DNA of 64,000 bases, taken from contig JAQWAQ010000003.1 in assembly GCA_028707635.1 (NCBI GenBank), positions 804 through 64,803 of the forward strand, read 5' to 3'. The position numbers and the translations under genes are program-made. Origin of the DNA: Negativicutes bacterium. Lineage in GTDB: Bacteria > Bacillota > Negativicutes > JAAYSF01. Under the pieces are notes generated by a model that was not told where the DNA came from, made no database searches, and was given only the letters and a program-made list of their open reading frames with translations. How positions within the stretch are numbered: the first letter of the stretch is position 1; the number at the start of each line of letters is the position of its first letter. This document shows, in pieces, positions 9,921 through 64,000 of this stretch.

Positions 9921-9944
9921 TTTGAAATTATTTAACTTAGTTAG

Positions 9945-9979: not shown

Positions 9980-9991
9980 GGAGGTGTTTTC

Positions 9992-12379: not shown

Positions 12380-12716
12380 TTACTTTCTCCCGATAGAGTA
12401 ATATTCTACTCCCGCCGCTTTCATTGCTTCAGTTCCATAGAATATTCCTTCCATCATAAACCAAAGGAGTTCGCATAAACTTCTTATAAGTTTCTGGTTT
12501 CACAGCTTTTATCTCGCCCCACTCGGTAAAGATAAAGCAAACATTAGCGCCTTCTAAAGCTTCCTTCACGTTATCAACGTACTTTATGCTTCCCCTGTCG
12601 TTTTTACCTTCAGGATATTTTTTCTTGGAGGCATCTGTACCGACAGGGTCATGTGCCCAAATATCCGCCCCCTACGCCAATAATAAAGGTGCGTTTTCAA
12701 GTAATGCGCTTCGCAA
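12380..12716 (-). pseudogene. ugd: C-terminal remnant of UDP-glucose 6-dehydrogenase
   Basis: Hand translation: LLA*GADIWAHDPVG...EALEGANVCFIFTEWGEIK...PLVYDGRNI / AGVEYYSIGRK*; internal stop and frameshift; the 5' part is missing next to the IS. Confidence 0.75.
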
Positions 12717-12837
12717 GAATTACTTCTTGTGCGAAGTGGCAATGATCTCCGATTTAATGGATTGATAGTGGCTATTCTTGGGTGTAAGCGGTCAAGTACT
12801 TTTTTAAAAAAACGGCCATTAATTTTGACCTCGTCCA

Positions 12838-13270
12838 ATATAACTAAGTCGGCATTTAATAATTGTTTGACTCGCCGTTGGCTGCGTTGGAGCATAGTCT
12901 GTGTCTTTAATATATTTAGCAATTCAAGATGGCTTTTACCGATACCAGGCGGCCCTAAATAAATAATGTTATACGCATCTTTAAGCCAGTGCATTTCCTT
13001 TAGTGTATCTATCTGGCATTTAGAAACAGACGTCTGGAAGCCAAAATCGAAGCTTTCAAGAAGTCCCTGATAAGGGAACTTGGCTTGTTTCATGCGTATA
13101 TCCAGCGATTTCTTCTGCCTAGCTGTTACTTCGGTTTCCAGACATTACTTAAGAAATTCGGGATATGCCGGTTGCTCCTTAACTGCTTGATTAAATAATT
13201 GTGGTAAAGCCTTTTTAAATTCGCCCATATGTAGTTCGGTCAACATCGCAGCAAATTCGGTTCCTGTAAA
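12838..13270 (-). pseudogene. istB: IS21 helper ATPase IstB fragment
   Basis: AKFPY..LESFDFGFQ, LGPPGIGKSH fused by deletion to ADLVILDE; in-frame stop upstream. Confidence 0.8.
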
Positions 13271-20569: not shown

Positions 20570-21935
20570 TGTAAACGCTAATATATAAATGAGCCACTTT
20601 GGCACAAAACGCTCACGAAAAAATGAGCCACCTTAAGTAAATTAACCTTTAAAATAGACTTAAGTGAGTCTGTTTTGGAGGTGTAAAAGGTGGTAATCAC
20701 ATTGGACGACTATGCTGAAATACGCAGGCTATTTAATTCCGGCATCAGCAAGCGTGCCATTGCCAAAAAGCTCGGCACTTCTAAAAATACAGTAGATAAA
20801 TACTGCCAAGGAGATACAGCTCCATGGAACAGAAAAAAGTACAGCCGTCAATCAACAATTATCAGCGATGACGTAATGGAATTCATTCGACAATGCTTAG
20901 AAGAGGATGAACGCGAAGGTGTTCGTACGCAGAAGCATACCGCTAAGCGGATATTCAACCGGTTAGTTGATGAATGCAATTTTACCGGAGGAGAAAGCAC
21001 AGTTCGAAGAACTGTAAATCAATTAAGGGAAAAGGTGCAGAAACCTTTTATTCCCCTGGAATTTTCTCCTGGTGAAGCACTTCAAATAGACTGGGGAATT
21101 GCTAAGATATACTTAGATGGTCATAAGATGGATGTTAATCTGTTTTGTGCCGGGCTCTGTACCAGTGATGCTCCCATCGTATTCGCTTTTGAAAAGCAAA
21201 ACGAAGAAAGCTTTCTTGAGGCTTTAGTACGAGCCTTCCAGCATTTTGGTGGAGTCGCTAGACGTGTATTCTTTGAAAATGCGAAAGTAGCCTGTTAAAG
21301 AAGGATTTGGCTCGCGTGCTATTAAACAAGATCGATATACGGCTCTCGCTGCTCATTATGGATTTGAAACTGTTTTCTGCAATCCATCTGAAGGACATGA
21401 AAAAGGCTTGGTTGAAGGGCTGGTTGGCTGGGCTAGATGAAACATTCTAGTACCTATCCCCAAAGTCGAAAGTCTGGAAGAATTAGATGGCCAGCTTTTG
21501 AAGCGTTGCAATAAATATCTGGATCACATCGTCAGAGGCAAGACATCAAGCGTAGGCGCCCTTCTTAAGTTTGAAAAAGAAGCTCTTATGAAATTGCCAA
21601 GCTATGTATTTGACACAAGCCGCAGCGTTAATACTTACGTGGACAGTTATTGTACAGTGCGTTTTGACACTAATAACTACTTTGTACCTATTTCTCATTG
21701 CGGTCATGAGGTGGCTGCAAAAGGTTACGGTACAAGGGTTGTAATATATCACCGCAGTACGGTAATTGCTAAACATAACCGCTGTTATGGCAAAAGGCAA
21801 ACCATTTATGAATTAGCTCATTATCTCCCTCTTTTAGAGAAAAGACCACGCTCTATCTTAAATGCTAAACCGGTAAGACACGCTTTACCACAGGATATCT
21901 TAGAATGGTTAGCTAGTTTGCCGGTAACTTTTTGA
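20570..21935 (+). mobile_element. second, different IS21-family remnant (left end plus broken istA; no istB or right end seen)
   Basis: TGTAAACGCT left end with a repeated AAATGAGCCAC motif; istA follows. Confidence 0.8.
20690..21935 (+). pseudogene. istA: IS21 transposase IstA, frameshifted
   Basis: ALQIDWG, RVFFENAKVA, +1 frameshift near 21293, GHEKGLVE, in-frame TGA near 21437, TVRFDTNNY. Confidence 0.85.
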
Positions 21936-50008: not shown

Positions 50009-50971
50009 TTAGAATTTATAAGTCACTGTTGTACGGAAAGAATTGTAATTGTCGGTGCCATGGACTTCTTCCATGTCTTTATAGAATACATTAAAGGTAG
50101 TATCCTGGGTCAGTTTGTGGTTGTAGCTGTAATACATCCCTTTACCTGATGGATCAAAGTCTGTCCAGCCTCCCATATCACCATTGGCTTCCACTTTGCT
50201 GTACATGGCTGAGAATGAATTTTTAGCATCGAACGCATAGCTTGCACCCAAAACATATGCTTGATTGTTATCATCAGCATTCGATTTCGTATACTCAGCG
50301 AAGTAGCCTACTTTGCCTTGATTAAAGGCAGCATCTAAGGCCCAGTGATTAGTTGTGTCGCCGCCGTCTACATCATAGCGGGCAAGAGTTCCACCGACAG
50401 TCCAGTTTTTAGCAGGATTATAGGAACCATGTACACTATACACTTTATTATCAGGGCCGCCTACATTGTAATTATTATAGCCGTTTTCCACACCAGCGAT
50501 AAAGTTTAAATTAGTTGCACCAAGTTTAGTAGAAGCACTTACACCATCAATGGAACCCATGTTGCTGCCGATATAACCTTCAGTGCTGTACAGCAGTGCT
50601 GTCGCACCAATAGTTGCGCCTTGACGACCAAGGTTGTATGTCACATTATCGCCTTTTAAAATAACACCAAAGCGGTCAATGGTCGAGATGGAATCACGAG
50701 TTGCAGAAGCTCTAAAATCAGCACTGCTTAAGCCGGCATGCAATCTTTGTGTTGCAAAGCGGGCATAAAGATCAGTATTCGCATCCAGAGCCAGTTTGGC
50801 ATTTAGCAAGAAGGTGCTTCTAGCGCTTTCCGATGTACCGTTAGCATCCGAATCATTCCAACGGTAGTGCACTTGTGCTGAACCGTCGAATTCAACAGGA
50901 GCGGCCATTACTACACCCATCGACATAGCCATTGCTGCAGCCACAGCTGCTGCGAGAAGTCTTTTTTTCAT
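50009..50971 (-). CDS. outer-membrane porin, OmpM-barrel-like, lacking an SLH domain
   Basis: Signal peptide followed directly by amphipathic strands (FDGSAQVHYRW); C-terminal TVTYKF. Confidence 0.75.
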   Translation of the reverse strand: MKKRLLAAAVAAAMAMSMGVVMAAPVEFDGSAQVHYRWNDSDANGTSESARSTFLLNAKLALDANTDLYARFATQRLHAGLSSADFRASATRDSISTIDRFGVILKGDNVTYNLGRQGATIGATALLYSTEGYIGSNMGSIDGVSASTKLGATNLNFIAGVENGYNNYNVGGPDNKVYSVHGSYNPAKNWTVGGTLARYDVDGGDTTNHWALDAAFNQGKVGYFAEYTKSNADDNNQAYVLGASYAFDAKNSFSAMYSKVEANGDMGGWTDFDPSGKGMYYSYNHKLTQDTTFNVFYKDMEEVHGTDNYNSFRTTVTYKF

Positions 50972-51106
50972 TAAGTTTTCCCCCTAAATATTTTTTATTG
51001 CACGCCATCCTACGGGGGCAAACTACTTTACAAAGAGTAAGTGTCCACGTTTCCTTAGTCTTTTGTGAGTAGTCAATCGCCCGCAGATTACAATACAACG
51101 AATAAC

Positions 51107-51220: not shown

Positions 51221-52510
51221 TTAGAAGTAGAAGTTAACTTGTACGCGTGTACGTTCGTTATCTGTATCTACCTTGCTGTCAGTGTATTCGCTATTGAAAG
51301 TTTGGAAACCTTCCATAACGATGTTTTTAGCAAGAGTATAACTTACACCCAAGCCAAAGCCTTCAACACCTTCGTTGAGGTTAGCAGCAGTTCTATCAGT
51401 TTGTGCTAGTATCATGTTTGAACCAGTCAATGCAACAGGAGTTGCGTAACTTTCCCAGTTGAAGTACTCAACAAATGTGCCCCAGCTTTGCGGTACTGAT
51501 TTGTTAGCACCTTTATAGCTGATTCTAGCAACATAAGCCTCAGGATCACCAGCAACATCACCATTTTGGAAATAGTCACCAGTTAACGCCCAATCTTTAG
51601 CAAACTTTGTGGTAAAGCCAGCACCGATTATGGAATAATCCACGTTGCGGATGCCTTTAGTTTCAAAGTAAGTTGCATTAATGTTTGTAGCTTTGCTAGT
51701 GTTATATTTTGCTTCAGCATAAACTGCATCTTTTACACCTTGAGTTGCAGCTTCAGTAGCAGTTGCAGCTTTGTCAGGGTTATAAGCAGCAAAATCAGCA
51801 TAACCAGCAGTTACTTTTAATGCATTACCAGCAGTAAATTTAACACCGTCAACCATACCAGTACCAGTAGTATCTACAAGGTAGCCAGTTTGGCCAAGGA
51901 ATTCAGCATAACGACCAATAGTAGAAGTTGCACCAGTGTTGAATACATTTTTAGTAGTTAAAGATGCAATAGCAACTTTTGCATCGTCACTGCCAGTTGT
52001 ACCTTGTTCATTGTGATTCATAGCGAAACGGCCATTGAATGTAGTGTTTTCATTCACAGCAGCAGTCATGTTGATACGGAAACGTTCGTAGAATTTGCTG
52101 TCATCAGCAGCTTCGTCATCATTCCAACGAAGACGAACGTCGCCAGTGAATTTAATATTGGATTGGTTAGCTTCCAATTTAGCTACGCGAACGCCAAGGT
52201 TTTGAAGTTCGGAGCTGAATTCAACAGCTAATTTGTCGACAAGAGCTTTTGTTTCAGCATCAGCTTTGTCGGATTTAACCATTGCTTTTGCAACGATTTG
52301 AGCCATTTCGTAACGAGTCATGTTTTTGTCGCCACGATATGTGCCGTCATTATAGCCGTCAACAATGCCAGCGTTAGCTAATTTAGCTACGGCATCATAG
52401 GCCCAGTGTTTTGCAGGAACATCAACGAATGGATTAGCAGCGGCAAATGCTGTACCGGCGATGCCAAGTACGAACACAAGCGCTAAAGTAATGATTAGAC
52501 TCTTTTTCAT
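51221..52510 (-). CDS. ompM: SLH-domain outer-membrane porin OmpM
   Basis: NPFVDVPAKHWAYDAV..L...GIVDGY, MTRYEMAQIVAKAM, coiled-coil stalk, barrel, C-terminal F. Confidence 0.9.
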   Translation of the reverse strand: MKKSLIITLALVFVLGIAGTAFAAANPFVDVPAKHWAYDAVAKLANAGIVDGYNDGTYRGDKNMTRYEMAQIVAKAMVKSDKADAETKALVDKLAVEFSSELQNLGVRVAKLEANQSNIKFTGDVRLRWNDDEAADDSKFYERFRINMTAAVNENTTFNGRFAMNHNEQGTTGSDDAKVAIASLTTKNVFNTGATSTIGRYAEFLGQTGYLVDTTGTGMVDGVKFTAGNALKVTAGYADFAAYNPDKAATATEAATQGVKDAVYAEAKYNTSKATNINATYFETKGIRNVDYSIIGAGFTTKFAKDWALTGDYFQNGDVAGDPEAYVARISYKGANKSVPQSWGTFVEYFNWESYATPVALTGSNMILAQTDRTAANLNEGVEGFGLGVSYTLAKNIVMEGFQTFNSEYTDSKVDTDNERTRVQVNFYF

Positions 52511-53317: not shown

Positions 53318-54472
53318 TTAGAATTTAATGTTAACGGCTGCACTGGTGCGGGCACCAAGCTCAGTTCCGTTTTGATCTTCAAAGTCTTGGTATTTAACAA
53401 CAAGCTTGGTGTTTTTGTCAAGACCTTTGTCGTATTGGAATTCCATACCTTTGAAGCCGTTTGCACTGTTAAGGGCTTCTACGTCGTTGCTAAGAGCACC
53501 GAAACCAGTGAATGCTGCGCTGTCTACATCTCTGTAGGTAGCTGACAAGCCGATTTTGTCGAATTTAACGCCATAAGCTTTTGCAGTAGCATTAGCATCG
53601 TTGTTGTCGAAGTATTCAGCTTTTGCAGTTACGTTGTCAGCAAGTTTGAAGGCAGTAGTCAAACCATAGATTTCTTGGTCGTTAGAGTCGTTTTTGTAGT
53701 AATCAGCACCGAAGTCTGCGCCAAGAGCGTTGAAGCCATATTCAGCAGCATAGACGCGGTTTTTGCCGTCTTCACTGTCGACAGTATTACCAGCAACAAG
53801 TTTCAGGTTACCAGCTTTAGTAGCAATTGCATTCATTTGAGTATCAAACAGGTAGCCGCCACCAAGCAGAACGTCTTGACGACCAATTGTGTTAGTCAGG
53901 CCAAGCGCATTGAAGGTTACATTAGCAGTATCAAGTTTGAATTTGCCACTTGTGCTGCCATCATATGCGATGTTGCCGCTGTTAATACGAGCATTGAATT
54001 TCAGGTTATCGCTTACGTTACCGTCGAAAGTTAAACGAGCACGGAAGTCAGTGTTGTCGTGAGCTTTACCAGCTTCATTTTCAGCGGAGAAATAACGAAC
54101 ACGAGCGTCACCGGAGATTTTAACCATGTTATCTACTTGGTCTTGAAGACCTGCAACTTTAACGCCGAGATTGTTCAGCTCTGTGCTGAATTCTTGTGCA
54201 AGTTGGTCAACAGCTGCTTGTTGTTCAGCGTTCAGGCTTTTGTTCATTGCTTTTGCTACAATTTGAGCCATTTCATAACGAGTCATAGTTTTGTCACCTT
54301 TATAGGTGCCATCATCATAACCGTCAACGATACCGGCTTGAGCAAGTTTGTTTACTGAATCATAAGCCCAGTGTTGTGCAGGAACATCGGAGAACGGATT
54401 AGCGAAGGCAGGTACCGCGAAGGCTACTGTTAATGCGGCTGCCACAGCTGCTTTTAAAAGTCTTTTTTTCAC
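53318..54472 (-). CDS. ompM: SLH-domain outer-membrane porin OmpM paralog
   Basis: NPFSDVPAQHWAYDSV, MTRYEMAQIVAKAM, barrel, C-terminal F; GTG start with RBS GGGGG. Confidence 0.9.
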   Translation of the reverse strand: MKKRLLKAAVAAALTVAFAVPAFANPFSDVPAQHWAYDSVNKLAQAGIVDGYDDGTYKGDKTMTRYEMAQIVAKAMNKSLNAEQQAAVDQLAQEFSTELNNLGVKVAGLQDQVDNMVKISGDARVRYFSAENEAGKAHDNTDFRARLTFDGNVSDNLKFNARINSGNIAYDGSTSGKFKLDTANVTFNALGLTNTIGRQDVLLGGGYLFDTQMNAIATKAGNLKLVAGNTVDSEDGKNRVYAAEYGFNALGADFGADYYKNDSNDQEIYGLTTAFKLADNVTAKAEYFDNNDANATAKAYGVKFDKIGLSATYRDVDSAAFTGFGALSNDVEALNSANGFKGMEFQYDKGLDKNTKLVVKYQDFEDQNGTELGARTSAAVNIKF

Positions 54473-54641
54473 TTTGAAATCCCCCTAAGTTTTTTTGTTC
54501 GCGGGTGTTGCCACCAGGCACTTCAGCTTGGTTCCATAGGGGGCATGATTGTTATGAGTATCCACGTTTCCTCAAACTTCATTGCCGCCAACGGAGTTTC
54601 TGCGTTATGCCACCTGCCGCTTTTACAGGTTCTAGTTTACA

Positions 54642-54670: not shown

Positions 54671-54978
54671 TAGAATAAGTGGTGTAAATATTGGTAATTG
54701 TTAGTTTTGACTAATCAGTCAAAACGCATCGAAAAAATAAGATCTGTCAATAAATAGTTTACATATTTAAATTTACAAATGACGGTTTTTTAGTTGGTTT
54801 TTATAATAAACTCTTAATGTATATAACTTGACTATATGGTCATTTGTATTTAAAAAAATATTTTATTAACATAATCTTATACTTTAAATTTCGACATTTT
54901 GAAGTAAAGTCCTTTTTTTGAATGGCTGTTTTGGGGTGGTAAATTATGGGAGGATTAAGTTTACATAAATATTATAAA

Positions 54979-55251
54979 GGTACTTTTTGCATTGCCCAAA
55001 AAGTACCCAAAAAGTCTACGGCCTATCTTGCAGAAGACTTGAAAAACCAGCGCGTTACTGGAAATCCGTAAACTCGCTGCGCTCAAACAACCGGATTTCT
55101 TAACCGTACCGTGCTGGTTTTTCATCTGCGGAACGTCTTCTTCCAGAATGGCCGGTAAGGACGAAGAAACCAGAAAAGCCGAGGTGGCCGGTGGGAACGG
55201 GGATACTATAAGCTAATGAACTCGTTTCAGCAGAGCTGAAACATCGGGGGG
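54979..55251. repeat. structured intergenic repeat, copy A (with accessory hairpin at 55220-55251)
   Basis: 37-nt core AAATCCGTAAACTCGCTGCGCTCAAACAACCGGATTT at 55062-55098 inside a long nested stem. Confidence 0.9.
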
Positions 55252-55374
55252 CAGGATGGAGGTACGCCACTTCTAGAGGTGGAATCTTGACGCAGCAATT
55301 AAGATAAAAACCGGCCTTGATTCCTCTTAAGCACAAAAAAAGCGGAAAGCATAATCCGGGTCATATCCGGACCA

Positions 55375-55430
55375 CTACTTTCCACTTTTTACTTTCTACT
55401 TTCCCATTACCACTTACCACTTTCCATATT
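55375..55430. repeat. heptamer tandem repeat (consensus CCACTTT, 8 degenerate units)
   Basis: ctacttt ccacttt ttacttt ctacttt cccatta ccactta ccacttt ccatatt, abutting the DUF3084 stop codon. Confidence 0.8.
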
Positions 55431-56684
55431 CTATTGTACCTTTTGTACGCTGATTTCGATGTGCAGAGGTCCGACAGTGTGGACGTCGGTTTTCGCGGTG
55501 GCGATGAGTTGGACTTTTCCGCCGTAGTGGCTGACCTTGTTAATTGTCTCATAAAGCTGTGCTCCGCTCATTGATCCTACTGTTCCTTGAATGGGATCAG
55601 GCAGGATGCCCTGCTTGGTTGCTACAGCGTTAACTTTCTGCAAGAAGGACAATACTACTTCCTCGGACTGGTGATTTTCCCGGCCAACATCCACAACTTC
55701 GGAATAAACGACCGAATCTTCGGAGTAAACCAAATGGTTGGGGAAAAGTTGGAGCTGACCGATGACTGGCTCACCATAAATGGTATTCCCTGTGGCCGTG
55801 ATGCGGACAATGACCGATTCGTCAGGGTTGGCATTCATAACATCGACCGCATGATCAATATCGGATTTAGCCAGCCATAAGACGTCCAAATTTTTATTTT
55901 CTATACCAAATCTTTCAATAATGGTTTGGTTAGCTTGATAGGCAATTGTACCAATAGCTTGTTTTGCCGAATCTGGCTTGCCGCTTGATTGCAAGGTAGT
56001 TGTATAAAGAACTTCACCGGCTCTGAATACGACTGCGCCTTCACGAACAAATTGCAGCCCATTTTTTAGATTGTCGGTCAATTTACTGAGTTCATCAACA
56101 TCTTTTTCCAATGAGATCTTGGATGAATTCAGCTGCGTGATACGGGTGTCAAGCTGAGTTTTAGTGGCCTGAAGTTCGGTAATTTCATGCTCGGCTTTAT
56201 CAAGGTCACCGCGAGCTAAGGCATAGTCAGACTGAACTTGAGATAAGGCAGCTGCTGCCTTATCTCGCTCAACCGTGACTGATGCCAGTTCGCGCGAGAT
56301 TGAGGTGAGCTTAGCTACTGTTTCCTGAACCTTAGCATTTAATCCTGCATACTCTTTGGTCTTGTCTTCAAGAGCCTTACGACTGATTTCCAGTTCAGCA
56401 TTCTGAGAAGATACTTCCTGCGAGAGAGAAACAAGCTGGGCTTTGAGGGCATCCATGCCGAACAGCGCAGTCCGCACATCACGCGATACCAGACTTAATA
56501 CGCCAAGCGTAGAAGCCGAAATCAGAATGCCTGTGATAATTGTCACAATAATCGACGTATATTTAGGACGCAGGCCAAAGATAGTGAGTTTTTTCTTACC
56601 AACTTTAGTACCCAACTTGTCGCCGATGTAGGCAATAGCCCCACCCATTATGGCGATGACGGCGATAAGCATTAATCCGTACAT
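55431..56684 (-). CDS. DUF3084-domain coiled-coil membrane protein
   Basis: GGAIAYIGDKLGTKVGKKKLTIFGLRPKYTS N-terminus, two TM segments, long coiled coil. Confidence 0.8.
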   Translation of the reverse strand: MYGLMLIAVIAIMGGAIAYIGDKLGTKVGKKKLTIFGLRPKYTSIIVTIITGILISASTLGVLSLVSRDVRTALFGMDALKAQLVSLSQEVSSQNAELEISRKALEDKTKEYAGLNAKVQETVAKLTSISRELASVTVERDKAAAALSQVQSDYALARGDLDKAEHEITELQATKTQLDTRITQLNSSKISLEKDVDELSKLTDNLKNGLQFVREGAVVFRAGEVLYTTTLQSSGKPDSAKQAIGTIAYQANQTIIERFGIENKNLDVLWLAKSDIDHAVDVMNANPDESVIVRITATGNTIYGEPVIGQLQLFPNHLVYSEDSVVYSEVVDVGRENHQSEEVVLSFLQKVNAVATKQGILPDPIQGTVGSMSGAQLYETINKVSHYGGKVQLIATAKTDVHTVGPLHIEISVQKVQ

Positions 56685-56729
56685 GGTTGTCTCCCCCCTC
56701 TCGTGTATTTCGGAAGTGTAATAACTATC

Positions 56730-57818
56730 CTATTGTGAAGCTTTTCTTACTAGGAAGAAGCCGGCGATGATTCCCAGGATGTTCGGCAGCCAGGCCGCCA
56801 GCAGGGGGGCGATGGCTCCGCCTTGACCGAGGGCCCCGGTGATGGTCATGATGGTATAGTAGATGAAGATAACGATTATACTAATTCCAAGACCAATAGA
56901 GGAACTTGAGCGATGCGGCTGCAGGCCGAGCGGTGTACCGATCAGCGCAAAGACAAAGCTTGCCAAGGGAACTGTAAAGCGCTGGTAGAGTTCGACTTCC
57001 AATTTATTGGTACTGACATACTCTTTTTGCAATATGTTAATCTGCTGCCGCAACTCCCTGATGCTCATTTCCTCGGCTTTCTTCTGCTCATTGGAAATGG
57101 TTTTTGGACTTTTGTTAATTGGCATGACCTGCTGGTCAAACCGCATTGTTCGTTCAAGCTTACCTTCAACAGACAGGTCGTGAATAATGCCGTTATACAT
57201 AATCCAACGGTCAGTTTTCCAAACCGCCTTTTCGGCATTTTCTACTCTCATTAGCTTTCCGCTTTCAAACTCCTGCATGGTCACCGCGTACATGGCGCCT
57301 GTCTTTTCATCATACTTACGCGCATAGGTCAGGCGCTCCAAATAATTTCCGCTGACATCTTTTATGACAATATGCTCCTGTGATTTAGGAGCCGTATTTT
57401 TTTCAATCTCATATTTAACAATATAATTATAGGCCGCATTAGACCGCGGTACAACATACTCATTAAAACCAACAGCAAAAATACTGACAAAGAAAGCGAC
57501 AACAAAGACCGGGGCTGCCAGTCTGTAAAAACTTAAACCGCCTGACTTCATTGCGGTGATTTCACTTGACCCTGACAAGCGGCCAAATGCCATAAGTGAA
57601 GCCAGCAGCATTGACATAGGAAAGGTCAGCACGACAATGCCGGGCAGACTATAGACAAACAGTTTAACTACTGTTAGCAAAGGTGTACCGTACTTTGTTA
57701 CGTACTGCGCAATCTTAAACAGTGTGCTTGTCCCGATAAAGATGCTGGAAAAGGCACAGATGCCGAATATAAATGGGCCGAGTAGTTCTTTGGTTATATA
57801 TTTGTCTAATATGCGCAT
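56730..57818 (-). CDS. LPS export ABC transporter permease LptF/LptG
   Basis: MRILDKYI, LSGSSEITAMKSGGLS, 3+3 TM segments around a periplasmic domain, AAWLPN. Confidence 0.9.
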   Translation of the reverse strand: MRILDKYITKELLGPFIFGICAFSSIFIGTSTLFKIAQYVTKYGTPLLTVVKLFVYSLPGIVVLTFPMSMLLASLMAFGRLSGSSEITAMKSGGLSFYRLAAPVFVVAFFVSIFAVGFNEYVVPRSNAAYNYIVKYEIEKNTAPKSQEHIVIKDVSGNYLERLTYARKYDEKTGAMYAVTMQEFESGKLMRVENAEKAVWKTDRWIMYNGIIHDLSVEGKLERTMRFDQQVMPINKSPKTISNEQKKAEEMSIRELRQQINILQKEYVSTNKLEVELYQRFTVPLASFVFALIGTPLGLQPHRSSSSIGLGISIIVIFIYYTIMTITGALGQGGAIAPLLAAWLPNILGIIAGFFLVRKASQ

Positions 57819-57854
57819 ATAGCTCTCCTCATAGTAAGGTTCAATCGAGGGGGG

Positions 57855-58574
57855 TTACAAACTAAAGTTTTGGCCAAGATAAAACTTGCGAGCGACTTCA
57901 CTGGCGGCAATAGTTTCACTGTCGCCTTCAATGAGGATTTCACCTTCATTTAGGATATAAGCCCGGTCGACAATACTGAGCGTCTCGCGGACATTGTGGT
58001 CGGTAATCAGGATGCCGATACCGCGTTTACGGAGGTAGTGAATGATTTCTTGAATGTCAGCGACAGCTATCGGATCAACACCGGCAAAAGGTTCGTCAAG
58101 CAAAATAAAATTAGGGTCTGTCGCTAAACAGCGGGCAATTTCCACCCGGCGGCGTTCACCGCCTGACAGCTCAGAGCCTTTGCGCTGCCTGACATGACCA
58201 ATATTAAACTCACTGATCAGGCTTTCGGCCTTTTCCTGGCGCTCGGCTGATGAAAGCTTCGTTGTTTCAAGAATGGCCAGAAGGTTATCCTCAACCGTCA
58301 GCTTGCGGAATACCGAGGCTTCCTGCGGCAGGTAGCCGATCCCATATCGCGAACGCTGGTACATGGGCATAGTAGTAACGTCTTCGCCATTCACAATGAT
58401 ATTGCCTTTGTTAGGTCGTTCAAGACCGACAATCATGTAAAAGGTTGTGGTCTTGCCAGCCCCGTTTGGACCAAGCAGACCAACAATTTGCCCTTTATTC
58501 ACTCGCAGGCTGACACCATTAACGACGTTACGATCTTTATATGTTTTCACCAGATGGTTAGTTTCAATATACAT
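57855..58574 (-). CDS. lptB: LPS export ABC transporter ATPase
   Basis: [48 protein letters not shown]; ATG 58574 with RBS AAGGAG. Confidence 0.95.
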
Positions 58575-58620
58575 GAAGGGGACTCCTTTCGGGAAAGTGG
58601 ATACGACGGGAACACCTACC

Positions 58621-58794
58621 GTCCTTTTGTCCATTGCCGCAAAAGGACCAAAACGGCTAGGCCGGTCTTACAGAAGACTTGAAAAATCCGCCCGTACTGA
58701 AAATCCGTAAACTCGCTGCGCTCAAACAACCGGATTTTTTAACCGTATCTTGCTGATTTTTCATCCTGCGGAACGTCTTCTTTCAGAATGACCG
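58621..58794. repeat. structured intergenic repeat, copy B
   Basis: Same core at 58701-58737. Confidence 0.92.
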
Positions 58795-58810
58795 AGGGGA
58801 ACGAATATCC

Positions 58811-59527
58811 CTACTGCGGTTGGACTACGAGCTTGGTGCGGCCGGTGGCGTCCATGGCTTTATCATCCATACGAATGGTTAGGGTCTCGCCTGTTAAGAT
58901 ATTTCCATCTTGGACAGCACGAGCATTGCCTGTCAGGACGGCCTTGCCTTGTCCACCTTCTTTTGTACCGTAATAAGTGGCATTGTCGGATACAGCATCA
59001 AGTTTACGTACATCGCTGACGATGTGAACATTGCCGTTACCAACGGCTTTGTCCTGCTCAATGAAGGCTTCAATCTGATCAGCTGTCATGAAACCGTCCG
59101 GCATAGTGAGGCGGGCTCCGCCGGGCACAACAGCATATTGCCTGTCTGAATAGTAATCAATTTTAGGTCCGGTGAGGGTATTATCACCCTTGACCAGGAC
59201 AGCACCACCTGTCGCACTCATGTGATTGTTGTCATAGGAGCGTACTTCTGCCGAGGTCAGGGTAGCATCTCCCTTGACGACCTTGACGCCTCCTGTCACA
59301 TAGGCCTCTCTGGTTTTTGTATTGTATTCGGCACTAGTTCCGGTCAGGACGGCGTCATCCTGAATCATCCTTACCCCGCCTTGTGCGGTCATAAGGCCGG
59401 TCGCCGAGTTATATTCAATCGTTTGGGCTGCCAATTCAACCGGTTTGTTCTGTTCGGCCTGCAGATTGGCTGCTGCGCCGAAGGTAATGAATACGGCGAT
59501 TAAGGCTGCGCTGATTTGTTTTTTCAC
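58811..59527 (-). CDS. lptA: LptA/OstA-family periplasmic protein
   Basis: Signal peptide, repeated beta-jellyroll strands, position between lptC and lptB. Confidence 0.8.
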   Translation of the reverse strand: MKKQISAALIAVFITFGAAANLQAEQNKPVELAAQTIEYNSATGLMTAQGGVRMIQDDAVLTGTSAEYNTKTREAYVTGGVKVVKGDATLTSAEVRSYDNNHMSATGGAVLVKGDNTLTGPKIDYYSDRQYAVVPGGARLTMPDGFMTADQIEAFIEQDKAVGNGNVHIVSDVRKLDAVSDNATYYGTKEGGQGKAVLTGNARAVQDGNILTGETLTIRMDDKAMDATGRTKLVVQPQ

Positions 59528-60072
59528 TTAGAAGCCCCTCCTTTTACTACCCGGGCATTGCCTTCTACTTTTACTTTTTCCATCTTGGCGTCACTTTCAA
59601 TGTTGTCACCAGTGATGACAGTATCATCTTTGGTTAAAACTACATCGCCTTTTCCGTAGAGATAGCGCTTCTTTCCTTCCCAGCGGGCTTCGCGGGCGGT
59701 AAAGGTGGACCCGTCACTAGATACGGCTTTAACATTACCGACCATCAAAATATCCTTTGTTTTGGTATCAAGATTGGCTTCAGGCGCCGTTATTTCAATA
59801 CTGCTGCCATCTTCTCTATAAAAAATGCCTTTGAGGTTGATCATTTTTACTGCACTGGTCTGCGGGTCAATCTCCGTTCGTTCGGAGTTCAGCTCCCACA
59901 GGCGTTTGCCATTATCTTCCTCAATAATCGAGTTGCCGATAAAAACAGGTTTGGTATCGTCGGTTTGGGCCGTTTCCGCCGGATTAGCCGGATCTTCTCT
60001 GGTAAAGTAGTACAGGCTTCCCAGCAACAGGATCATCACACAGGCAATAATTAAATATTTCTTATTCTTCAA
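59524..60072 (-). CDS. lptC: LPS export periplasmic protein LptC
   Basis: Single N-terminal TM plus jellyroll (WEL.SE, ITA.EA). Confidence 0.8.
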   Translation of the reverse strand: MKNKKYLIIACVMILLLGSLYYFTREDPANPAETAQTDDTKPVFIGNSIIEEDNGKRLWELNSERTEIDPQTSAVKMINLKGIFYREDGSSIEITAPEANLDTKTKDILMVGNVKAVSSDGSTFTAREARWEGKKRYLYGKGDVVLTKDDTVITGDNIESDAKMEKVKVEGNARVVKGGASK

Positions 60073-61013
60073 ACCTGCTCACCGATCCTCTCTTGCACGG
60101 TTGGGGAAGCTGGGCCGGTATACGCAATGCAGGAGTCCTCTTTAAACGGCGTATTCCAACGTTTTTGGAACCACAGCCATTGGTCAGGATACTGCCTAAT
60201 GGTGTCTTCGGTTATTTTCGTCATGCGCTCAGTGAGTTTGTGTAACGATTCTGGATCGCCGCCAATGTTCTCATAATAGAGCGGCGGATAGATCATAACA
60301 CGGTGCCCGCCTTCGGGGCGACGGACGATGAATACCGGTACAACAGGAGCTTTAAACTTCCGGGCAAAGACGGCCGGACCTAAGGGTGTAGACGCCATTT
60401 TGCCGAGAAACTTTAAAAACACTCCGCTATAGCCAGCATCCTGGTCGGCTAAAAAGCCAAGCACCTTGCCTTTTTTGAGGGCTTTGGCTGCTGCAATCAG
60501 TTCGGTGGTGCCGCGGGCAAAAATTTCGAGGCCCACCATTTCGCGATATTCATTCAAAATCCGGGTATGCTGATCATTGGGCTGGCGCTTAATGACGGTG
60601 GTCATTGGAAAACCATCCATCGCCAGGGCTGCCCCCAGCCATTCCCAGTTACCGACATGAGCGGTGAGAAAAACCACTCCATGCCCTTCGGCGACTGCGT
60701 CTTCCAGATAGTGACGATTTTCAATGGTAACATATTTTTTAATTTTTTCCGGAGTGAGTGATGGTATGTACATCACTTCTAAGAAGGTCTGGCCGAGATT
60801 GAGGAACAGCTTTTTAATGATCCGAGTGCCTTCAGCCGGCGATACACCGGTACTCTCGATCAACTGTGCGAGCGCGCGCCGTCTTTGCCGGGCAGCAATA
60901 TGATAATAGAGTTTGCCAAGCTGTCTGCCGAGAAATAAAACTGCTCGGTAGGGCAGCAAGCAAACGATTCGGCTAATTGTTTTGAGTAAATGGTATTGCC
61001 ATTCATTCGACAT
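60069..61013 (-). CDS. lpxL: lipid A late acyltransferase (LpxL/HtrB family)
   Basis: TAHVGNWE, FLADQD, DQWLWFQKRW; ATG 61013 with RBS AAAGGAGG. Confidence 0.88.
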   Translation of the reverse strand: MSNEWQYHLLKTISRIVCLLPYRAVLFLGRQLGKLYYHIAARQRRRALAQLIESTGVSPAEGTRIIKKLFLNLGQTFLEVMYIPSLTPEKIKKYVTIENRHYLEDAVAEGHGVVFLTAHVGNWEWLGAALAMDGFPMTTVIKRQPNDQHTRILNEYREMVGLEIFARGTTELIAAAKALKKGKVLGFLADQDAGYSGVFLKFLGKMASTPLGPAVFARKFKAPVVPVFIVRRPEGGHRVMIYPPLYYENIGGDPESLHKLTERMTKITEDTIRQYPDQWLWFQKRWNTPFKEDSCIAYTGPASPTVQERIGEQV

Positions 61014-61041
61014 GGCGGCGGGCCTCCTTTCAAGAACTATC

Positions 61042-61290
61042 GTCCTTTTGTCCATTGCCGCAAAAGGACCAAAACGGCTAGGCCTATCTTACAGAAGCCT
61101 TGAAAATTATCGAGGTACTTTTGGCATCGCCCCAAAAGTTACCAAAAGGGCTAGGCCTGTCTTGCAGTCGACTTGAAAAATTATCACGCTACTGGAAATC
61201 CGTAAACTCGCTGCGCTCAAACAACCGGATTTCTTAATCGTAACGTGCTGATTTTTCATCCTGCGGAACGTCTCCTTTCAGAATGGCCGG
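61042..61290. repeat. structured intergenic repeat, copy C (partial copy 61042-61112 plus full copy 61114-61290)
   Basis: Same core at 61196-61232. Confidence 0.92.
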
Positions 61291-61349
61291 TCAGGGACGA
61301 AATGCAGGTAAGTGACGGACGGTACGGGGGTACGGTTTTCTGGTTTCCC

Positions 61350-61394
61350 CCACTTTCCACTTTCCACTTTCCACTTTTTACTTTCCACTTTCTA
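61350..61394. repeat. heptamer tandem repeat (CCACTTT)x6
   Basis: ccacttt x4, ttacttt, ccacttt, then the kdsC stop codon. Confidence 0.85.
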
Positions 61395-61937
61395 CTGCCT
61401 TGTTTCTATAACTCCTGGCTTTGTGTAAAGGGTTATGACGTCCTCCCACTTGCCTTGGGCTTTTAGGATAAATTCTACTATTTCACGGACAGCGCCTTGG
61501 CCGCCTTCTCGGGTGGCTACGTAATGCGCCCGTTCTTTGACTTCGGATATGGCGTTAGCCGGAGCACAGCCAAACCCGACTTTCATAATGACGGCCAGAT
61601 CGTTGAGGTCATCGCCAACATAGCCGATTTCATCGAACTTGAGATTATGCTTTTCCGCAAGTTCGGTGAGGACTTCCACTTTGTCTTTGGCGGCCTGATA
61701 GATATCGCCGATATTTAGTTCGGCCCCGCGGAATTTCACCATTTCACTTTCACGTCCGGTAATGATGGCTGTTTTAAGACCAACCTTGTGAGCGGCCGAT
61801 ATCGCCATTCCGTCATGAGTATGGAATTGCTTCATAAGCTCACCCTCGCGACCGATGTAAATCTGACCGCTTGTTAAGACACCGTCAACGTCAAAAATGA
61901 TGAGTTTGATTTTAGCGGCACGAGTATTACAATCCAT
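61392..61937 (-). CDS. kdsC: KDO 8-phosphate phosphatase
   Basis: IFDVDGVLT, DG.AI, IITGR, VGDDLND, GG.GAVRE. Confidence 0.93.
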   Translation of the reverse strand: MDCNTRAAKIKLIIFDVDGVLTSGQIYIGREGELMKQFHTHDGMAISAAHKVGLKTAIITGRESEMVKFRGAELNIGDIYQAAKDKVEVLTELAEKHNLKFDEIGYVGDDLNDLAVIMKVGFGCAPANAISEVKERAHYVATREGGQGAVREIVEFILKAQGKWEDVITLYTKPGVIETRQ

Positions 61938-62911
61938 TATACCACCCCTTGACGTAATAAGTCAGTAAGGTGAATAATACCAATTGCTTTATTGTCCTTG
62001 TCCACAACCGGCAAAACAGTAATGGGGCGAGGTTTATTTTTCTCCATAATATTCAGCGCCTGCGCTGCCAGCTTATCTGCTGTAATGGTTCGCGGCGTTT
62101 TGGTCATGAGAGCACCTACTTGTCCGTCAAGGAATTCGTGCCCGGTTCTTTCCAGCCCGCGGCGAATATCACCATCAGTCAAAATACCCATTAAATTCCC
62201 TTGCTGGTCAATGACCGAGGTCACGCCCAAGCCTTTAGCGGTAATGACAAACAGCGCTTCTTTCACTGTTCGATCCGGGGTAATGACAGGGTTATCTTCA
62301 CCCGAATGCATGACGTTTGCAACTGTCAACAACAATTTGCGACCTAAGCTGCCGCCTGGATGGAAGAGGGCAAATTCTTCGGGTGTAAAGTTTTTGGTAC
62401 AGAGCAACGCTACCGCTAGCGCATCCCCCATGGCCAAGGTAGCCGTGGTGCTGGCTGTTGGGGCGAGTCCTAAGGGACAGGCTTCTTGCTCTACTTTGAC
62501 ATCTAAAAAAACATCGGCGTTTTGGACCAGTGTCGATTGTTCGCGGCCGCACATGGCAATCATCCTGGCTCCGATGCGTTTAATGGCTGGAATAATGCTA
62601 ACGACCTCACCGGTTTCGCCGCTGTTCGATATGGCCAATACAATATCATCACTTGTTACCATGCCTAAGTCACCATGAATGGCTTCAGCCGGATGCAGAA
62701 AAAAGGCCGGGGTGCCGGTACTTGCTAACGTAGCGGCAATCTTCCGGCCGACATGGCCTGATTTTCCCATACCGGTGACAATAACACGGCCCTTGCCTTC
62801 CATCACCATGGTGACAGCGGCGGTAAACTGGCCGTTTATCCGAGGAATGAGGCTTTCGATGGCCTCTGCTTCCATTTTAAGAACTGTACGAGCTTGTTCT
62901 ATGATTGTCAT
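61937..62911 (-). CDS. kdsD: arabinose 5-phosphate isomerase (KpsF/GutQ)
   Basis: GMGKSGHVG, HPAEAIHGDLG, LAPTASTT, FHPGGSLG, tandem CBS domains; ATG 62911 with RBS AAGGAGG. Confidence 0.93.
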   Translation of the reverse strand: MTIIEQARTVLKMEAEAIESLIPRINGQFTAAVTMVMEGKGRVIVTGMGKSGHVGRKIAATLASTGTPAFFLHPAEAIHGDLGMVTSDDIVLAISNSGETGEVVSIIPAIKRIGARMIAMCGREQSTLVQNADVFLDVKVEQEACPLGLAPTASTTATLAMGDALAVALLCTKNFTPEEFALFHPGGSLGRKLLLTVANVMHSGEDNPVITPDRTVKEALFVITAKGLGVTSVIDQQGNLMGILTDGDIRRGLERTGHEFLDGQVGALMTKTPRTITADKLAAQALNIMEKNKPRPITVLPVVDKDNKAIGIIHLTDLLRQGVV

Positions 62912-62951
62912 AGGAGACCTCCTTAACTGGGAAAGTGGTAATGGGTAAACT

Positions 62952-63178
62952 GTCCTTTTGTCCATTGCCGCAAAAGGACCAAAACGGCTAGGCCGGTCTT
63001 ACAGAAGACTTAAAAAATCCGCCCGTACTGAAAATCCGTAAACTCGCTGCGCTCAAACAACCGGATTTTTTAACCGTATCGCGCTGATTTTTCATCCTGC
63101 GGAACGTCTTCTTTCAGAATGGCCGATGGGAACGGGGAACGTAACCTCGTTTCAGCTGAGCTGAAACATCGGGGGGAA
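62952..63178. repeat. structured intergenic repeat, copy D (with accessory hairpin at 63146-63178)
   Basis: Same core at 63032-63068. Confidence 0.92.
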
Positions 63179-63190
63179 GATGGCCAGAGT

Positions 63191-64000
63191 CTATTTATGT
63201 TTTCTTACTACGTTATCGATAGCTAAAACGTCTTTTAATAAATCTTCGAGTTTGTCCACATAGAGCATGTTAGGGCCGTCGCAAAGGGCTTCTTCAGGGT
63301 TGTCATGAACTTCCATGAAGAGGGCATCGATACCGACAGCAACAGCGGCGCGAGTGAGATATTCTACGAACTCTCTTTGTCCGGTTGATGCAGTTCCAGC
63401 GCCGCCTGGCAGCTGAACGCTGTGCGTCGCATCAAAAACAATGGGGTAGCCGAGGGAACGCATAATGGCTAAGCCGCGCATATCGACAACAAGGTTATTG
63501 TAGCCGAAACTGGCGCCGCGTTCGGTCAGCAGGATATTCTCATTGCCTGCTTCGCGGATTTTATTAATTACATTTTTCATATCATTCGGGGCCATGAACT
63601 GGCCTTTTTTTACATTGACAGGTTTGCCAGTCTGCGCGGCTGTGTAGACCAGGTCGGTCTGCCGGGATAAGAATGCTGGAATCTGCAAAATGTCAAGGAC
63701 TTCAACTGCTGGTGTAATCTGATTAATGCAGTGAATATCACTGACAACCGGAACACCTAATTCGGCTTTTATTTTTTTCAAAATCGTCAGTCCTTCTTCC
63801 AAGCCTGGACCACGGAAAGAAGTAAAGGACGAACGGTTGGCTTTATCAAAAGATGCTTTAAAAATGTAGGGAACGCCAAGCCTGTCAGCGATGGCTTTGA
63901 TGGCCCGGCCGATTTTAAGCGAACGGTCATAACCTTCAATGACACAAGGTCCGGCAATTAATACTAGCGGCTGCTTGCCGCCAACTTCAATTGAGTTTAT
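63191..64000 (-). CDS. kdsA: 3-deoxy-8-phosphooctulonate synthase, 5' end outside the window
   Basis: Open frame to the window edge: [56 protein letters not shown]. Confidence 0.95.

Follow-up and report, generated by a model that had tools for sequence, protein, structure and literature searches.

In an uncultured Sporomusaceae bacterium, a structured repeat recurs between the genes of the kds-lpt operon, always in the same orientation, which raises the question whether it serves the operon in which it resides or has been brought there by a process of its own. In the 64-kb stretch of DNA analysed here (the window), a direct-repeat search finds four full copies of about 190 bases each and one 3' fragment, all in a single orientation in the intergenic spacers of this operon. 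Neither this search nor a scan with a covariance model of the apical hairpin yields further copies in the window outside the operon, the matches of the model being the four full copies alone, and the 23-mer GTAAACTCGCTGCGCTCAAACAA occurs exactly four times in the window, confined to the copies, and in none of 100 shuffles.

Copies and their operon setting

With genes named after the Pfam matches in L122, a 98% relative, the operon reads kdsA, kdsD-kdsC, acyltransferase-lptC-lptA and lptB-lptFG-DUF3084, and a copy follows each of these four blocks. The genes as well as the copies lie on the minus strand, and every copy is placed after a stop codon and before the next ribosome-binding site. Copy D (62949-63139, apex loop 63040-63059) occupies the kdsA-kdsD spacer and is 97% identical to copy B (58618-58808, apex loop 58709-58728) in the lptA-lptB spacer. 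Copy C (61113-61303, apex loop 61204-61223) lies in the kdsC-acyltransferase spacer, where it is directly followed on its 3' side by a partial copy of 75 nt (61032-61106, minus strand) comprising only the base of the 3' arm and the pseudoknot module described below. Copy A (54979-55170, apex loop 55070-55089), a long bulged hairpin scoring 51.7 bits with the covariance model, is found downstream of the DUF3084 gene.

Further modules on the minus strand accompany some of the copies. The accessory hairpin CTCGTTTCAGC..GCTGAAAC (on the mRNA strand CCCCCCGAUGUUUCAGC-UCA-GCUGAAACGAG), which an earlier note on this DNA had assigned to copies A and D, is indeed present 5' of copy D (63146-63176) and 5' of copy A (55221-55251), and can also be found 5' of two copies in L122. 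A module of heptamer tandem repeats, (GAAAGUG)n-GGGGGAAACCAGAAAACCGUA, succeeded by a C-rich arm, resides 5' of copy C (61310-61409) and in L122 3' of the kdsA-kdsD copy, and a second heptamer stretch with GGUAAGU / GAAAGUA units lies upstream of copy A (55372-55434).

The distance from the end of the pseudoknot to the next start codon is 32-45 nt. No robust intrinsic terminator was found in the elements on either strand, the only terminator-like match being a weak one inside the 3' arm of copy A, and in the pseudoknot module a U run precedes the hairpin, unlike in an intrinsic terminator, where a G+C-rich hairpin is followed by the U run. As they contain no terminator, the elements are expected to be read through.

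A folded core with an invariant apex

On the strand of the operon mRNA, the apex comprises about 20 nt of the form U-G-U-Y-U-G-A-[GC-(GNA)-GC]-G-A-G-U-U-Y, i.e., a GNA-triloop mini-hairpin with tandem G.A on its flanks. It tops a stem of about 10 bp that is free in sequence, underneath which an A-rich bulge of 4-6 nt on the 5' side is followed by a stem that is longer and imperfectly paired. Of the 56 pairs predicted when 10 Sporomusaceae copies are aligned, 25 show compensatory changes, and the changes of this kind that were listed in the earlier note are likewise seen on aligning the copies. The covariation persists when the alignment is enlarged to 114 distinct sequences of many phyla, in which 90.4% of cells are paired in comparison to 48.4% in shuffles and at most 49% if the partner is slid, and in which all 11 of 11 pairs have compensatory changes. 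Copies, alignments and covariance model thus agree with the original description of a structured, covarying repeat whose invariant loop holds a GC-GNA-GC mini-hairpin, and the family is defined by its folded core and not by its sequence.

The 3' pseudoknot

In most lineages the main hairpin is followed on its 3' side by an H-type pseudoknot with a U/C-rich linker that mirrors the purine strand of the pseudoknot's stem, as it would in a major-groove triple helix. The 3' hairpin is present in at least 79 of 120 instances among the matches listed; in copy A it extends from 54979 to 55007, and in copy B stem S2 lies at 58621-58648 and linker L1 together with S1a at 58649-58658 (both minus strand). 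The pairing score of S1 is 4.65, versus 4.02 +/- 0.09 for permuted loops (maximum 4.27 in 500 permutations), and the pairs differ between lineages (CTTGAT/ATCAAG, CTTGAA/TTCAAG, TCGCC/GGCGA, TGCCC/GGGCA) as well as within the window (AGCCG/CGGC vs GCCC/GGGC).

As to the linker, all but two of the asymmetric tracts read by eye mirror the purine strand, among them TTTTTCT with AAAAAGA, TTTTCTT with AAAAGAA, TTCTTTT with AAGAAAA and TTCTCTTT with AAGAGAAA; the two others, the second copy of L111 and L014, run against the parallel rule. The code of the pyrimidine-motif DNA triplex consists of T.AT, C.GC and G facing T-A, and in L081, L111 and L006 a G of the linker stands opposite a T of the purine strand. 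Most tracts are mirror-symmetric, so that an automated register test does not separate a parallel from an antiparallel triplex and the putative triplex is based on the handful of asymmetric lineages read by eye. Judged from these sequences, what had at first been seen as a small hairpin belongs to a pseudoknot that probably includes a triple helix, in which the pyrimidine linker would run parallel to the purine strand.

Empty sites and exchange of copies

In relatives with 84-88% KdsD identity the sites are empty: the kdsC-acyltransferase spacer measures 23-34 nt in L124 and L126, the lptA-lptB spacer 27 nt in L124, and at two of the insertion sites of the window the spacers of L124 and L125 are 27-34 nt long. 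A scan of L124 to L127 with the covariance model revealed no copy anywhere; other long hairpin repeats occupy three of these spacers in L127 and two in L126. In turn, L122 carries four copies at the same four sites, all in sense orientation, but the subtypes have changed places. With the L122 copy at a different site, in the kdsA-kdsD spacer, copy C shares 97.7% identity, and the partial copy, which is absent from the kdsC-acyltransferase spacer of L122, is 97.1% identical to the 3' part of its lptA-lptB copy. Copies at different sites are thus 97-98% identical, in comparison to 90-93% for the flanking genes.

These data show that the copies entered the kds-lpt operon after this lineage had split from the relatives with 84-88% KdsD identity and have since been exchanged or replaced between the sites of the operon. 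Presence or absence among close relatives, together with copies that are more alike between genomes than the DNA flanking them, is the behaviour of a mobile or duplicative repeat, in line with the non-autonomous element initially proposed, for which the empty spacers of L124 to L126 supply the comparison with relatives. In the window the old spacers were wholly replaced, and the ends of the element and target-site duplications are therefore not definable there.

Distribution across phyla

The exact 20-nt loop is found at 120 or more genome loci, whereas about one occurrence would be expected by chance in 596 Gb, and these loci belong to about nine phyla. According to record titles, the matches listed include 42 from Pseudomonadota, 33 from Bacteroidota, 20 from Bacillota, 15 from Desulfobacterota and five from Nitrospirota, with Rhodothermales, Patescibacteria, Binatota and Melainabacteria as further groups, and phage and plasmid collections are nearly devoid of the element. 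The loop nearly always tops a stem of about 10 bp, and stems unrelated in sequence between lineages nevertheless pair. As the loci were gathered with the exact loop, its invariance partly reflects this selection, and the independent test is provided by 20 copies found by the model. In these, the triloop is GCA, GAA or GUA, the mini-stem can be lengthened with its pairing kept (GGC-GAA-GCC, GGGC-GAA-GCCC), and G2 stands opposite U or C.

The structure that carries the core varies by lineage and may be a unit with terminal inverted repeats, a hairpin with pseudoknot or a pair of near-perfect arms of about 150 bp. In Flammeovirga the core lies within a 392-bp unit ending in 16-bp terminal inverted repeats that themselves end in TA, and in Lachnospiraceae and Desulfobacterota the near-perfect arms reach up to about 150 bp. 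In many lineages tandem repeats with a period of 6, 7 or 12 adjoin the element on the 5' side of the favoured strand.

Known families and linked genes

A search of the whole window against Rfam 15 gave no match at the gathering score, and at E <= 10 positions 54700-63400 matched only archaeal and eukaryotic families at chance level. Likewise, no Rfam match covers the element when 18 loci of Bacteroidota, Proteobacteria, Bacillota, Nitrospirota and further phyla are searched, and a likeness to the orphan motifs Flavo-1 or Bacteroidales-1, as suggested in the earlier note, is not borne out. Nothing in curated RNA families, Pfam families or the searchable literature accounts for the element, and the family appears to be previously undescribed. 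A linked HUH/Y1 transposase, which had been envisaged, was found neither in the 64-kb window nor within 8 kb of the 120 other copies among the matches listed; the same 120 loci of 8 kb share no conserved neighbouring gene, and the window holds no RAYT gene.

With respect to classes of known hairpin elements, the foot of the hairpin varies by lineage and has no shared GTAG/CGTC, the loop being the conserved part, which does not fit the tag of a REP or REPIN. Integron attC sites are not indicated either, since the foot sequences, where attC sites have conserved R''/R' and L''/L' boxes, are unconserved and the window has no integrase. A retron non-coding RNA would be adjoined by a reverse-transcriptase gene, and no such gene neighbours the copies of the window or those of the loci among the matches listed.

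Strand preference and rival explanations

One strand of the element is preferred. Among the matches listed, the better-folding orientation is the same in 106 of 116 instances, G-U pairs number 498 on the favoured strand as against 205, and outside the apex there are 43 C(GNA)G mini-hairpins versus eight of the complementary type. Relative to the surroundings, in turn, the biases are weak: at low-GC loci the upstream gene is co-oriented with the element in 25 cases versus 12 and only four elements lie between divergent genes, and orientation with respect to GC skew (39 vs 60) runs opposite in direction to IS200/IS605-type elements. Biases of this size give no clear indication of an RNA route, or of one coupled to the replication fork.

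The explanation we favour, and hold to be probable, is that of a widespread non-autonomous repeat family which has recently spread, which has a strongly constrained folded core and whose copying is aided by a factor in trans, any effect on the operon being secondary. A trans-acting factor would recognise one folded strand by its bulge and its invariant apex, and spread would proceed by copy-and-insert or gene conversion. Insertions in sense orientation between cistrons would be transcribed within the polycistronic mRNA and might there form very stable intercistronic structures, which could shield the upstream transcript segment at its 3' end and the downstream segment at its 5' end, presumably as a side effect that the host tolerates or exploits and not as the family's reason to exist. 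Whether the active strand folds as RNA or as single-stranded DNA is, on present evidence, about equally balanced.

A single-stranded DNA element, whose strand would fold when exposed by replication, transcription or transfer, is a serious contender, although we rate it at somewhat below even. Apex and bulge would then be where a DNA enzyme recognises the element or initiates, be it an HUH-type nuclease, a recombinase, or a primase/polymerase as at single-strand initiation signals, and an intrastrand DNA triplex would form in the 3' module, as would fit a linker code of T.AT, C.GC and G facing T-A. C(GNA)G triloops outside the apex are likewise more frequent on that strand, orientation to flanking genes is near-random, and the near-perfect arms of Lachnospiraceae and Desulfobacterota resemble a product of DNA copying and not of selection on RNA. 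The apex GCGNAGC belongs to a class forming an extraordinarily stable DNA mini-hairpin, d(gcGCAgc) having been studied as DNA (PMC3201870) and GCGNAGC hairpins being known from the complementary-strand origin of phage G4, ssiA of RSF1010 and the hairpin promoters of phage N4 (PMC13037366), and bacterial genomes are known to hold intrastrand triplex repeats (PMC4666352). However, no recombinase, HUH or Y1 gene is linked to the element in the window or in the 120 loci among the matches listed, the skew preference is weak and the reverse of that of IS200/IS605-type elements, plasmids and phages as the home of single-strand initiation signals are essentially without the element, and U.A-U triple-helix pseudoknots and G-U wobbles would suit RNA equally well.

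That the copies were selected by the host as cis-regulatory RNA to split the kds-lpt transcript, acting as processing site, exonuclease barrier or insulator such that the segments differ in stability or translation, appears unlikely. The position of all window and L122 copies, in sense exactly between stop codon and next ribosome-binding site, the short distance from pseudoknot to start codon, the read-through and the preference at low-GC loci for sites downstream of a co-oriented gene with a depletion of divergent spacers would all be in keeping with it, and in the element-free relatives L127 and L126 it is again these spacers that bear long hairpin repeats. Indeed, eight sense copies in one operon would also be expected of a host-selected cis element. 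However, the short spacers of L124 and L125 imply that the operon works without an insert, copies in other genomes flank unrelated genes and are often antisense to them, copies are exchanged from site to site, and local regulation cannot account for a 20-nt loop that is invariant over about nine phyla. More doubtful still is a non-autonomous retroelement with an RNA intermediate, for which a reverse transcriptase encoded elsewhere would read the 3' triple-helix pseudoknot and the apex and copy from the 3' end. Triple-helix pseudoknots serve telomerase RNA, the G-U bias is compatible with an RNA stage, tandem repeats adjoin the element in many lineages, and the sole truncated copy retains the 3' end without the 5' part, which is the pattern of 5'-truncated retrocopies. 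Yet this single copy is an anecdote, the tandem repeats lie on the 5' and not on the 3' side of the favoured strand, no locus among the matches listed has a linked reverse transcriptase, target-site duplications are not definable, and the Flammeovirga unit has the terminal inverted repeats typical of cut-and-paste DNA elements.

Implications

Since the carrier differs between lineages, the core may also be carried along as cargo and have its own function, instead of being the determinant of mobility. It is conceivable, if not the expected outcome, that it constitutes a new functional nucleic-acid domain present in at least nine phyla, with its own partner or catalysis and moved by varied vehicles; such a domain would consist of the invariant apex at a fixed distance from the A-rich bulge, usually followed by the putative triple-helix pseudoknot. 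It would then represent an unrecognised structured RNA (or single-stranded DNA) system and more than a selfish palindrome. A 20-nt motif that is identical from Patescibacteria to Proteobacteria amid free covariation in any case points to a partner or a fold under very strong constraint. If the active strand is RNA, a widespread structured class is gained, with a triple-helix pseudoknot of a kind rare in bacteria; if it is single-stranded DNA, the hairpin signals that have so far been described only at origins of phages and plasmids would gain a relative that resides on chromosomes in multiple copies. In practical terms, the elements give rise to spurious ORFs in annotations and break assemblies, as exemplified by a contig of 222 bp whose coverage is roughly double that of the neighbouring ones, and they reshape the spacers of essential operons within a few percent of sequence divergence.

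Comparison with known systems

Similar in habit are the RAYT-mobilised REP/REPIN/BIME sequences, which are likewise short, non-coding, intergenic, multi-copy, hairpin-forming, modular and mosaic, with genome-specific stem sequences, and which often lie between the genes of an operon and are able to stabilise the upstream mRNA. What REPs conserve, however, is their stem, the foot of which bears a GTAG or CGTC tag (PMC3733652), whereas the present element combines free stems with a loop that is invariant across phyla. It is also five to ten times longer and includes a pseudoknot/triplex module as well as a fixed bulge, and its surroundings yielded no RAYT gene. Bacterial MITEs such as Correia/NEMIS, ERIC, RUP and BOX share with it the non-autonomous nature, a length of 100-400 bp, the intergenic location, the co-transcription and a presence that varies among close relatives, and the Flammeovirga unit has terminal inverted repeats as well, of 16 bp and ending in TA. 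MITE families, in contrast, do not extend beyond a genus or family and have terminal repeats as their defining feature, while the present core occurs in about nine phyla and is characterised by a folded internal motif, the window copies being without definable terminal repeats or target duplications.

Integron attC sites are active as a folded single strand, as the present element would be; in both, the stem sequence is free, the active strand is distinguished by bases left unpaired on one side, and a single orientation is kept along a gene array. However, attC sites combine conserved R/L boxes at the foot with a variable loop, which is the reverse of the situation here, where integrase and cassettes are lacking and the flanking genes are essential core genes in conserved order. 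The intrastrand triplex repeats BoxC and TMECO described by Holder et al. (2015) are tied to rearranged loci (PMC4666352). TMECO forms a G/C-rich purine-motif triplex of about 35 nt, is found in Proteobacteria only and has no hairpin with a conserved loop (PMC4666352), while the triplex putatively formed here would be of the pyrimidine type (T.A-T / C.G-C), placed within a pseudoknot, and one module of a larger element. Finally, the GCGNAGC hairpins of initiation sites present the same class of mini-hairpin at the tip of a larger, strand-specific fold (PMC13037366); those of G4, ssiA and N4 are single-copy phage or plasmid signals with a known enzyme partner, whereas the present element is chromosomal and multi-copy.

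Copies in the kds-lpt operon

The repeat that had been claimed from the sequence alone is real. A direct-repeat search yields four full copies in a single orientation, all on the minus strand: copy A downstream of the DUF3084 gene (54979-55170), copy B in the lptA-lptB spacer (58618-58808), copy C between kdsC and the acyltransferase gene (61113-61303) and copy D between kdsA and kdsD (62949-63139), together with a 75-nt fragment oriented likewise (61032-61106, minus strand). Exactly four occurrences of the tip 23-mer are present in the window as against none in 100 shuffles, and a search with an apical-hairpin covariance model found no further copies in the remaining 56 kb. Since the operon genes lie on the minus strand, the reading UGUUUGAGCGCAGCGAGUUU is that of the mRNA. 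Judged by L122, a relative with 98% KdsD identity, the operon runs KdsA (DAHP_synth_1), KdsD (SIS+CBS), KdsC (Hydrolase_3), lipid A acyltransferase, LptC, LptA, LptB, LptF/G and the DUF3084 protein. Every copy occupies the interval from a stop codon to the next ribosome-binding site, and the operon mRNA would carry the copies as large intercistronic structures.

An LPS/O-antigen gene cluster makes up the remainder of the window, which comes from an uncultured Sporomusaceae bacterium, and the 64 kb contain no transposase other than two fragments, one of IstB and one of a resolvase-like HTH. These two, a truncated IstB (IS21 helper) ORF (12584-13093) and a resolvase-type HTH_7 ORF (20690-21298) in the polysaccharide gene cluster, are remnants of other mobile elements without relation to the repeat. 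The repeat families D4 (52260-52445 and 54225-54410) and D7 (50933-50995 and 54434-54496) likewise lie outside the element, being 5' ends and upstream regions common to paralogous SLH-domain and porin-like genes (51221-52510, 53318-54472 and 50009-50971).

A family spanning several phyla

Scanning the 20-mer AAACTCGCTGCGCTCAAACA against one genome per species returned at least 120 loci where about one would be expected by chance (596 Gb, two strands). Assigned by record title, the matches listed comprise 42 loci from Pseudomonadota, 33 from Bacteroidota, 20 from Bacillota, 15 from Desulfobacterota and five from Nitrospirota, besides single loci from Rhodothermales, Patescibacteria, Binatota, Melainabacteria and an unclassified bacterium. 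Cultured carriers include Hungatella hathewayi DSM 13479, Ralstonia sp. 25C, Flammeovirga aprica ATCC 23126, Rhodoferax ferrireducens and Extensimonas vulgaris DSM 100911. In nearly all listed loci the 20-mer forms a hairpin loop, on stems unrelated in sequence to those of the window copies. Constrained folds show a constant geometry, with an apical stem of about 10 bp, a bulge of 4-6 nt on the 5' side (e.g., GUUAA, AUCAG, AUUAA or AAAAA) and a further stem. When 114 distinct sequences were aligned to the model, 90.4% of cells were paired, as compared to 48.4% after shuffling and at most 49% with partners slid, the loci having been gathered by the exact loop and the alignment fitted to the model. 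Compensatory changes are found in 11 of 11 pairs, most positions displaying all four Watson-Crick pair types, and the covariation described in the earlier note is stronger in this larger alignment, not weaker, which answers the refuting condition that the note had set.

Natural variation of the loop was read from 20 copies found by the model instead of by the exact pattern. Within the triloop the middle base can change (GCA, GAA, GUA), apex position 4 is U or C, and the last base, opposite G2, is also U or C. The two-pair mini-stem can lengthen with pairing kept (GGC-GAA-GCC, GGGC-GAA-GCCC, and GCC-GAA-GGC in L110, one of the listed loci), and two of the four L122 copies have GCGAAGC. Based on this variation the apex can be written as U-G-U-Y-U-G-A-[GC(GNA)GC]-G-A-G-U-U-Y, which is a GNA-triloop mini-hairpin with adjoining tandem G.A and U-rich strands beyond.

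A pseudoknot module and a candidate triple helix

The small hairpin that the earlier note placed beside the long stem is conserved across phyla (at least 79 of 120 listed instances), and is part of a pseudoknot module. This module consists of S1a, a linker rich in U and C, S2a, a loop starting with S1b, and an S2b rich in purines. The complementary segments S1a and S1b differ in sequence by lineage, with CTTGAT/ATCAAG, CTTGAA/TTCAAG and CTTGAC/GTTAAG in Bacteroidota, TCGCC/GGCGA, TGCCC/GGGCA and TGGC/GCCA in Proteobacteria and Desulfobacterota, and, in the window, AGCCG/CGGC in copies B and D versus GCCC/GGGC in copy C. The longest S1 helix has a mean length of 4.65 bp against 4.02 +/- 0.09 with permuted loops (500 permutations, maximum 4.27), which demonstrates the pseudoknot pairing.

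The linker is the mirror image of S2a, not its repeat, and so lies parallel to S2b, T being opposite A and C opposite G, as in TTTTTCT|AAAAAGA, TTTTCTT|AAAAGAA, TTCTTTT|AAGAAAA and TTCTCTTT|AAGAGAAA (linker|purine strand). This is the pairing code of the pyrimidine-motif triple helix known from DNA. The parallel rule holds at 12 of 12 positions in L096, and in L081, L111 and L006 the linker has G opposite T of the purine strand where a plain mirror copy would give A; a second L111 copy and L014 are asymmetric exceptions. Automated register scoring did not separate parallel from antiparallel arrangements because most tracts are mirror-symmetric, and a triple helix in the 3' module is therefore rated as no more than likely.

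Mobility and neighbouring repeats

No copies were found in relatives with 84-88% KdsD identity (L124/L125, L126 and L127), the kdsC-acyltransferase and lptA-lptB spacers of L124 being only 34 and 27 nt long. In L122, with genes at 90-93% DNA identity, the four spacers occupied in the window also hold copies, but of different subtypes. Window copy C matches the kdsA-kdsD copy of L122 at 97.7% identity, the window fragment matches the 3' portion of the lptA-lptB copy of L122 at 97.1%, and window copies B and D share 97% identity; the fragment and a heptamer tandem-repeat module each occupy one spacer in the window and another in L122. These swaps and shifts imply that copies were inserted, replaced or converted after the two genomes diverged. 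Presence/absence polymorphism and copy exchange are both shown.

The heptamer module consists, on the mRNA strand, of (GAAAGUG)n (window 61310-61409 and 55372-55434; L122 about 9880-9990), followed by GGGGGAAACCAGARAACCGUA and a C-rich heptamer arm able to pair with the heptamers. In the window this module flanks copy C on the 5' side, but in L122 it is found on the 3' side of the kdsA-kdsD copy. Other phyla have tandem repeats with a period of 6, 7 or 12, situated 60-250 nt 5' of the loop and made of lineage-specific units such as TTTTGACTTGGT (12 times) or GCCTTG (seven times). Spacers of the element-free relatives hold other long hairpin repeats, with arms of period 8-9 nt and the cap GCGCGATAATTATCGCGC in three spacers of L127 (kdsA-kdsD, kdsC-acyltransferase and lptA-lptB), and with arms built from AAGTRAC-like heptamers in two of L126 (kdsA-kdsD and lptA-lptB); the kds-lpt spacers look like hot spots for several kinds of hairpin repeat. 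In the gammaproteobacterial locus L076 the hairpin GGATTCCCGCCTTCGCGGGAATGACG comes after the copy (about 1400-1460 and 2400-2460), and we take this hairpin to be a common proteobacterial repeat yielding 'IPAFAGMT'-type spurious peptides. Different repeat families appear to cluster together. In L028 (Nitrospirales) a copy lies between Rfam matches to group II intron domains D1-D4 and D5-D6, 5.7 kb apart (features at 2148-2434, 2775-2822 and 7806-7879), and may have inserted into the intron.

The core also occurs within larger structures. In Flammeovirga, core and pseudoknot lie within a unit of about 392 bp with the ends TACATTGTAAACTAAA...TTTAGTTTACAATGTA and 16-bp terminal inverted repeats that have TA at beginning and end (L023 4059-4452; L038 3329-3720 and 7364-7757; L064 883-1267), which looks like a cut-and-paste MITE bearing the core. 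In Lachnospiraceae and relatives (L048, L045, L098, L103, L073), as in the Desulfobacterota loci L005 and L120, the apex caps very long near-perfect inverted repeats without pseudoknot, with arms of up to about 150 nt and predicted energies of -150 to -300 kcal/mol. Many proteobacterial loci have two copies on opposite strands, 200-400 bp apart.

RNA or single-stranded DNA

The fold favours one strand. The loop-UGUUUGAG... orientation is the more stable in 106 of 116 instances folded on both strands, 498 G-U pairs span the loop on the favoured strand versus 205 on the other, and C(GNA)G mini-hairpins outside the apex number 43 as opposed to eight of the complementary type (e.g., UCC-GCA-GGA in the 5' arm of Sporomusaceae copies, CCC-GAA-GGG and CCCC-GCA-GGGG in Burkholderiales).

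Whether this strand acts as RNA or as single-stranded DNA is, in our estimate, about an even choice. The G-U bias and the pseudoknot argue for RNA, and so does the fact that the eight copies of the window and L122 all lie in sense orientation. Also in favour of RNA, upstream genes show a modest excess of co-orientation (25 versus 12) and the element is depleted from spacers between divergent genes. Apart from these last two signals, orientation with respect to genes is near random, which speaks for DNA, as do near-perfect arms of about 150 bp in some lineages and a triplex code that includes G opposite T-A. The apex, moreover, falls into the GCGNAGC class, a classic, extraordinarily stable DNA mini-hairpin that occurs at single-strand initiation sites (PMC13037366, PMC3201870). 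Orientation gives weak signals both with neighbouring genes and with GC skew (39 versus 60), and DNA and RNA folding energies, computed for both strands of one copy, do not discriminate.

The initial observation is confirmed and considerably extended. On the best-supported reading the repeat is non-autonomous, has spread recently and has as its core a one-stranded fold under strong constraint. A putative conserved trans-acting partner probably reads this core. Like the triple helix, the route of spread and any effect on the operon are inferred.

Comparison with known elements

Neither the window (Rfam 15, gathering score and E<=10) nor 18 loci of other phyla (gathering score) gave an Rfam match over the element, and Pfam searches with ORFs and translations across it were negative. 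E. coli genomes had no match, plasmids and phages at most weak partial ones, and IMG/VR viral contigs no exact match. Clustering all ORFs of the 120 listed loci revealed no gene consistently nearby: clusters at the element itself are nothing but spurious ORFs crossing it, and the few real gene clusters lie 1-4 kb away in at most eight loci. Where genes separate paired copies, they are ordinary ones. Such crossing ORFs, in the window at 54961-55125 (-), 61107-61259 (-) and 58447-58710 (+) and in many of the listed loci, have translations with TRCAQT or NSLRSN. In G+C-rich genomes they reach 130-320 aa and would end up annotated as hypothetical proteins.

The element has no robust intrinsic terminator, the sole terminator-like match being weak and in the 3' arm of copy A, and a terminator was rejected as no U run follows the hairpin. 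A riboswitch was dismissed because the element is not co-oriented with the downstream gene, a hammerhead-like core because only the tandem G.A beside a stem is in common, a boxA mimic because boxA varies between phyla while the loop is constant, and a promoter in a single-stranded hairpin because the arms lack a -35/-10 pair. parS, CIRCE and other conserved DNA operators were set aside as well, since we know of no sequence match to them. A full-text search on the loop (in DNA and RNA letters), the translated peptides and the concepts found no description of the element in the literature covered; the nearest published items are the tagged REP superfamilies (PMC3733652), G/C-rich intrastrand triplex repeats (PMC4666352) and DNA mini-hairpins (PMC13037366).
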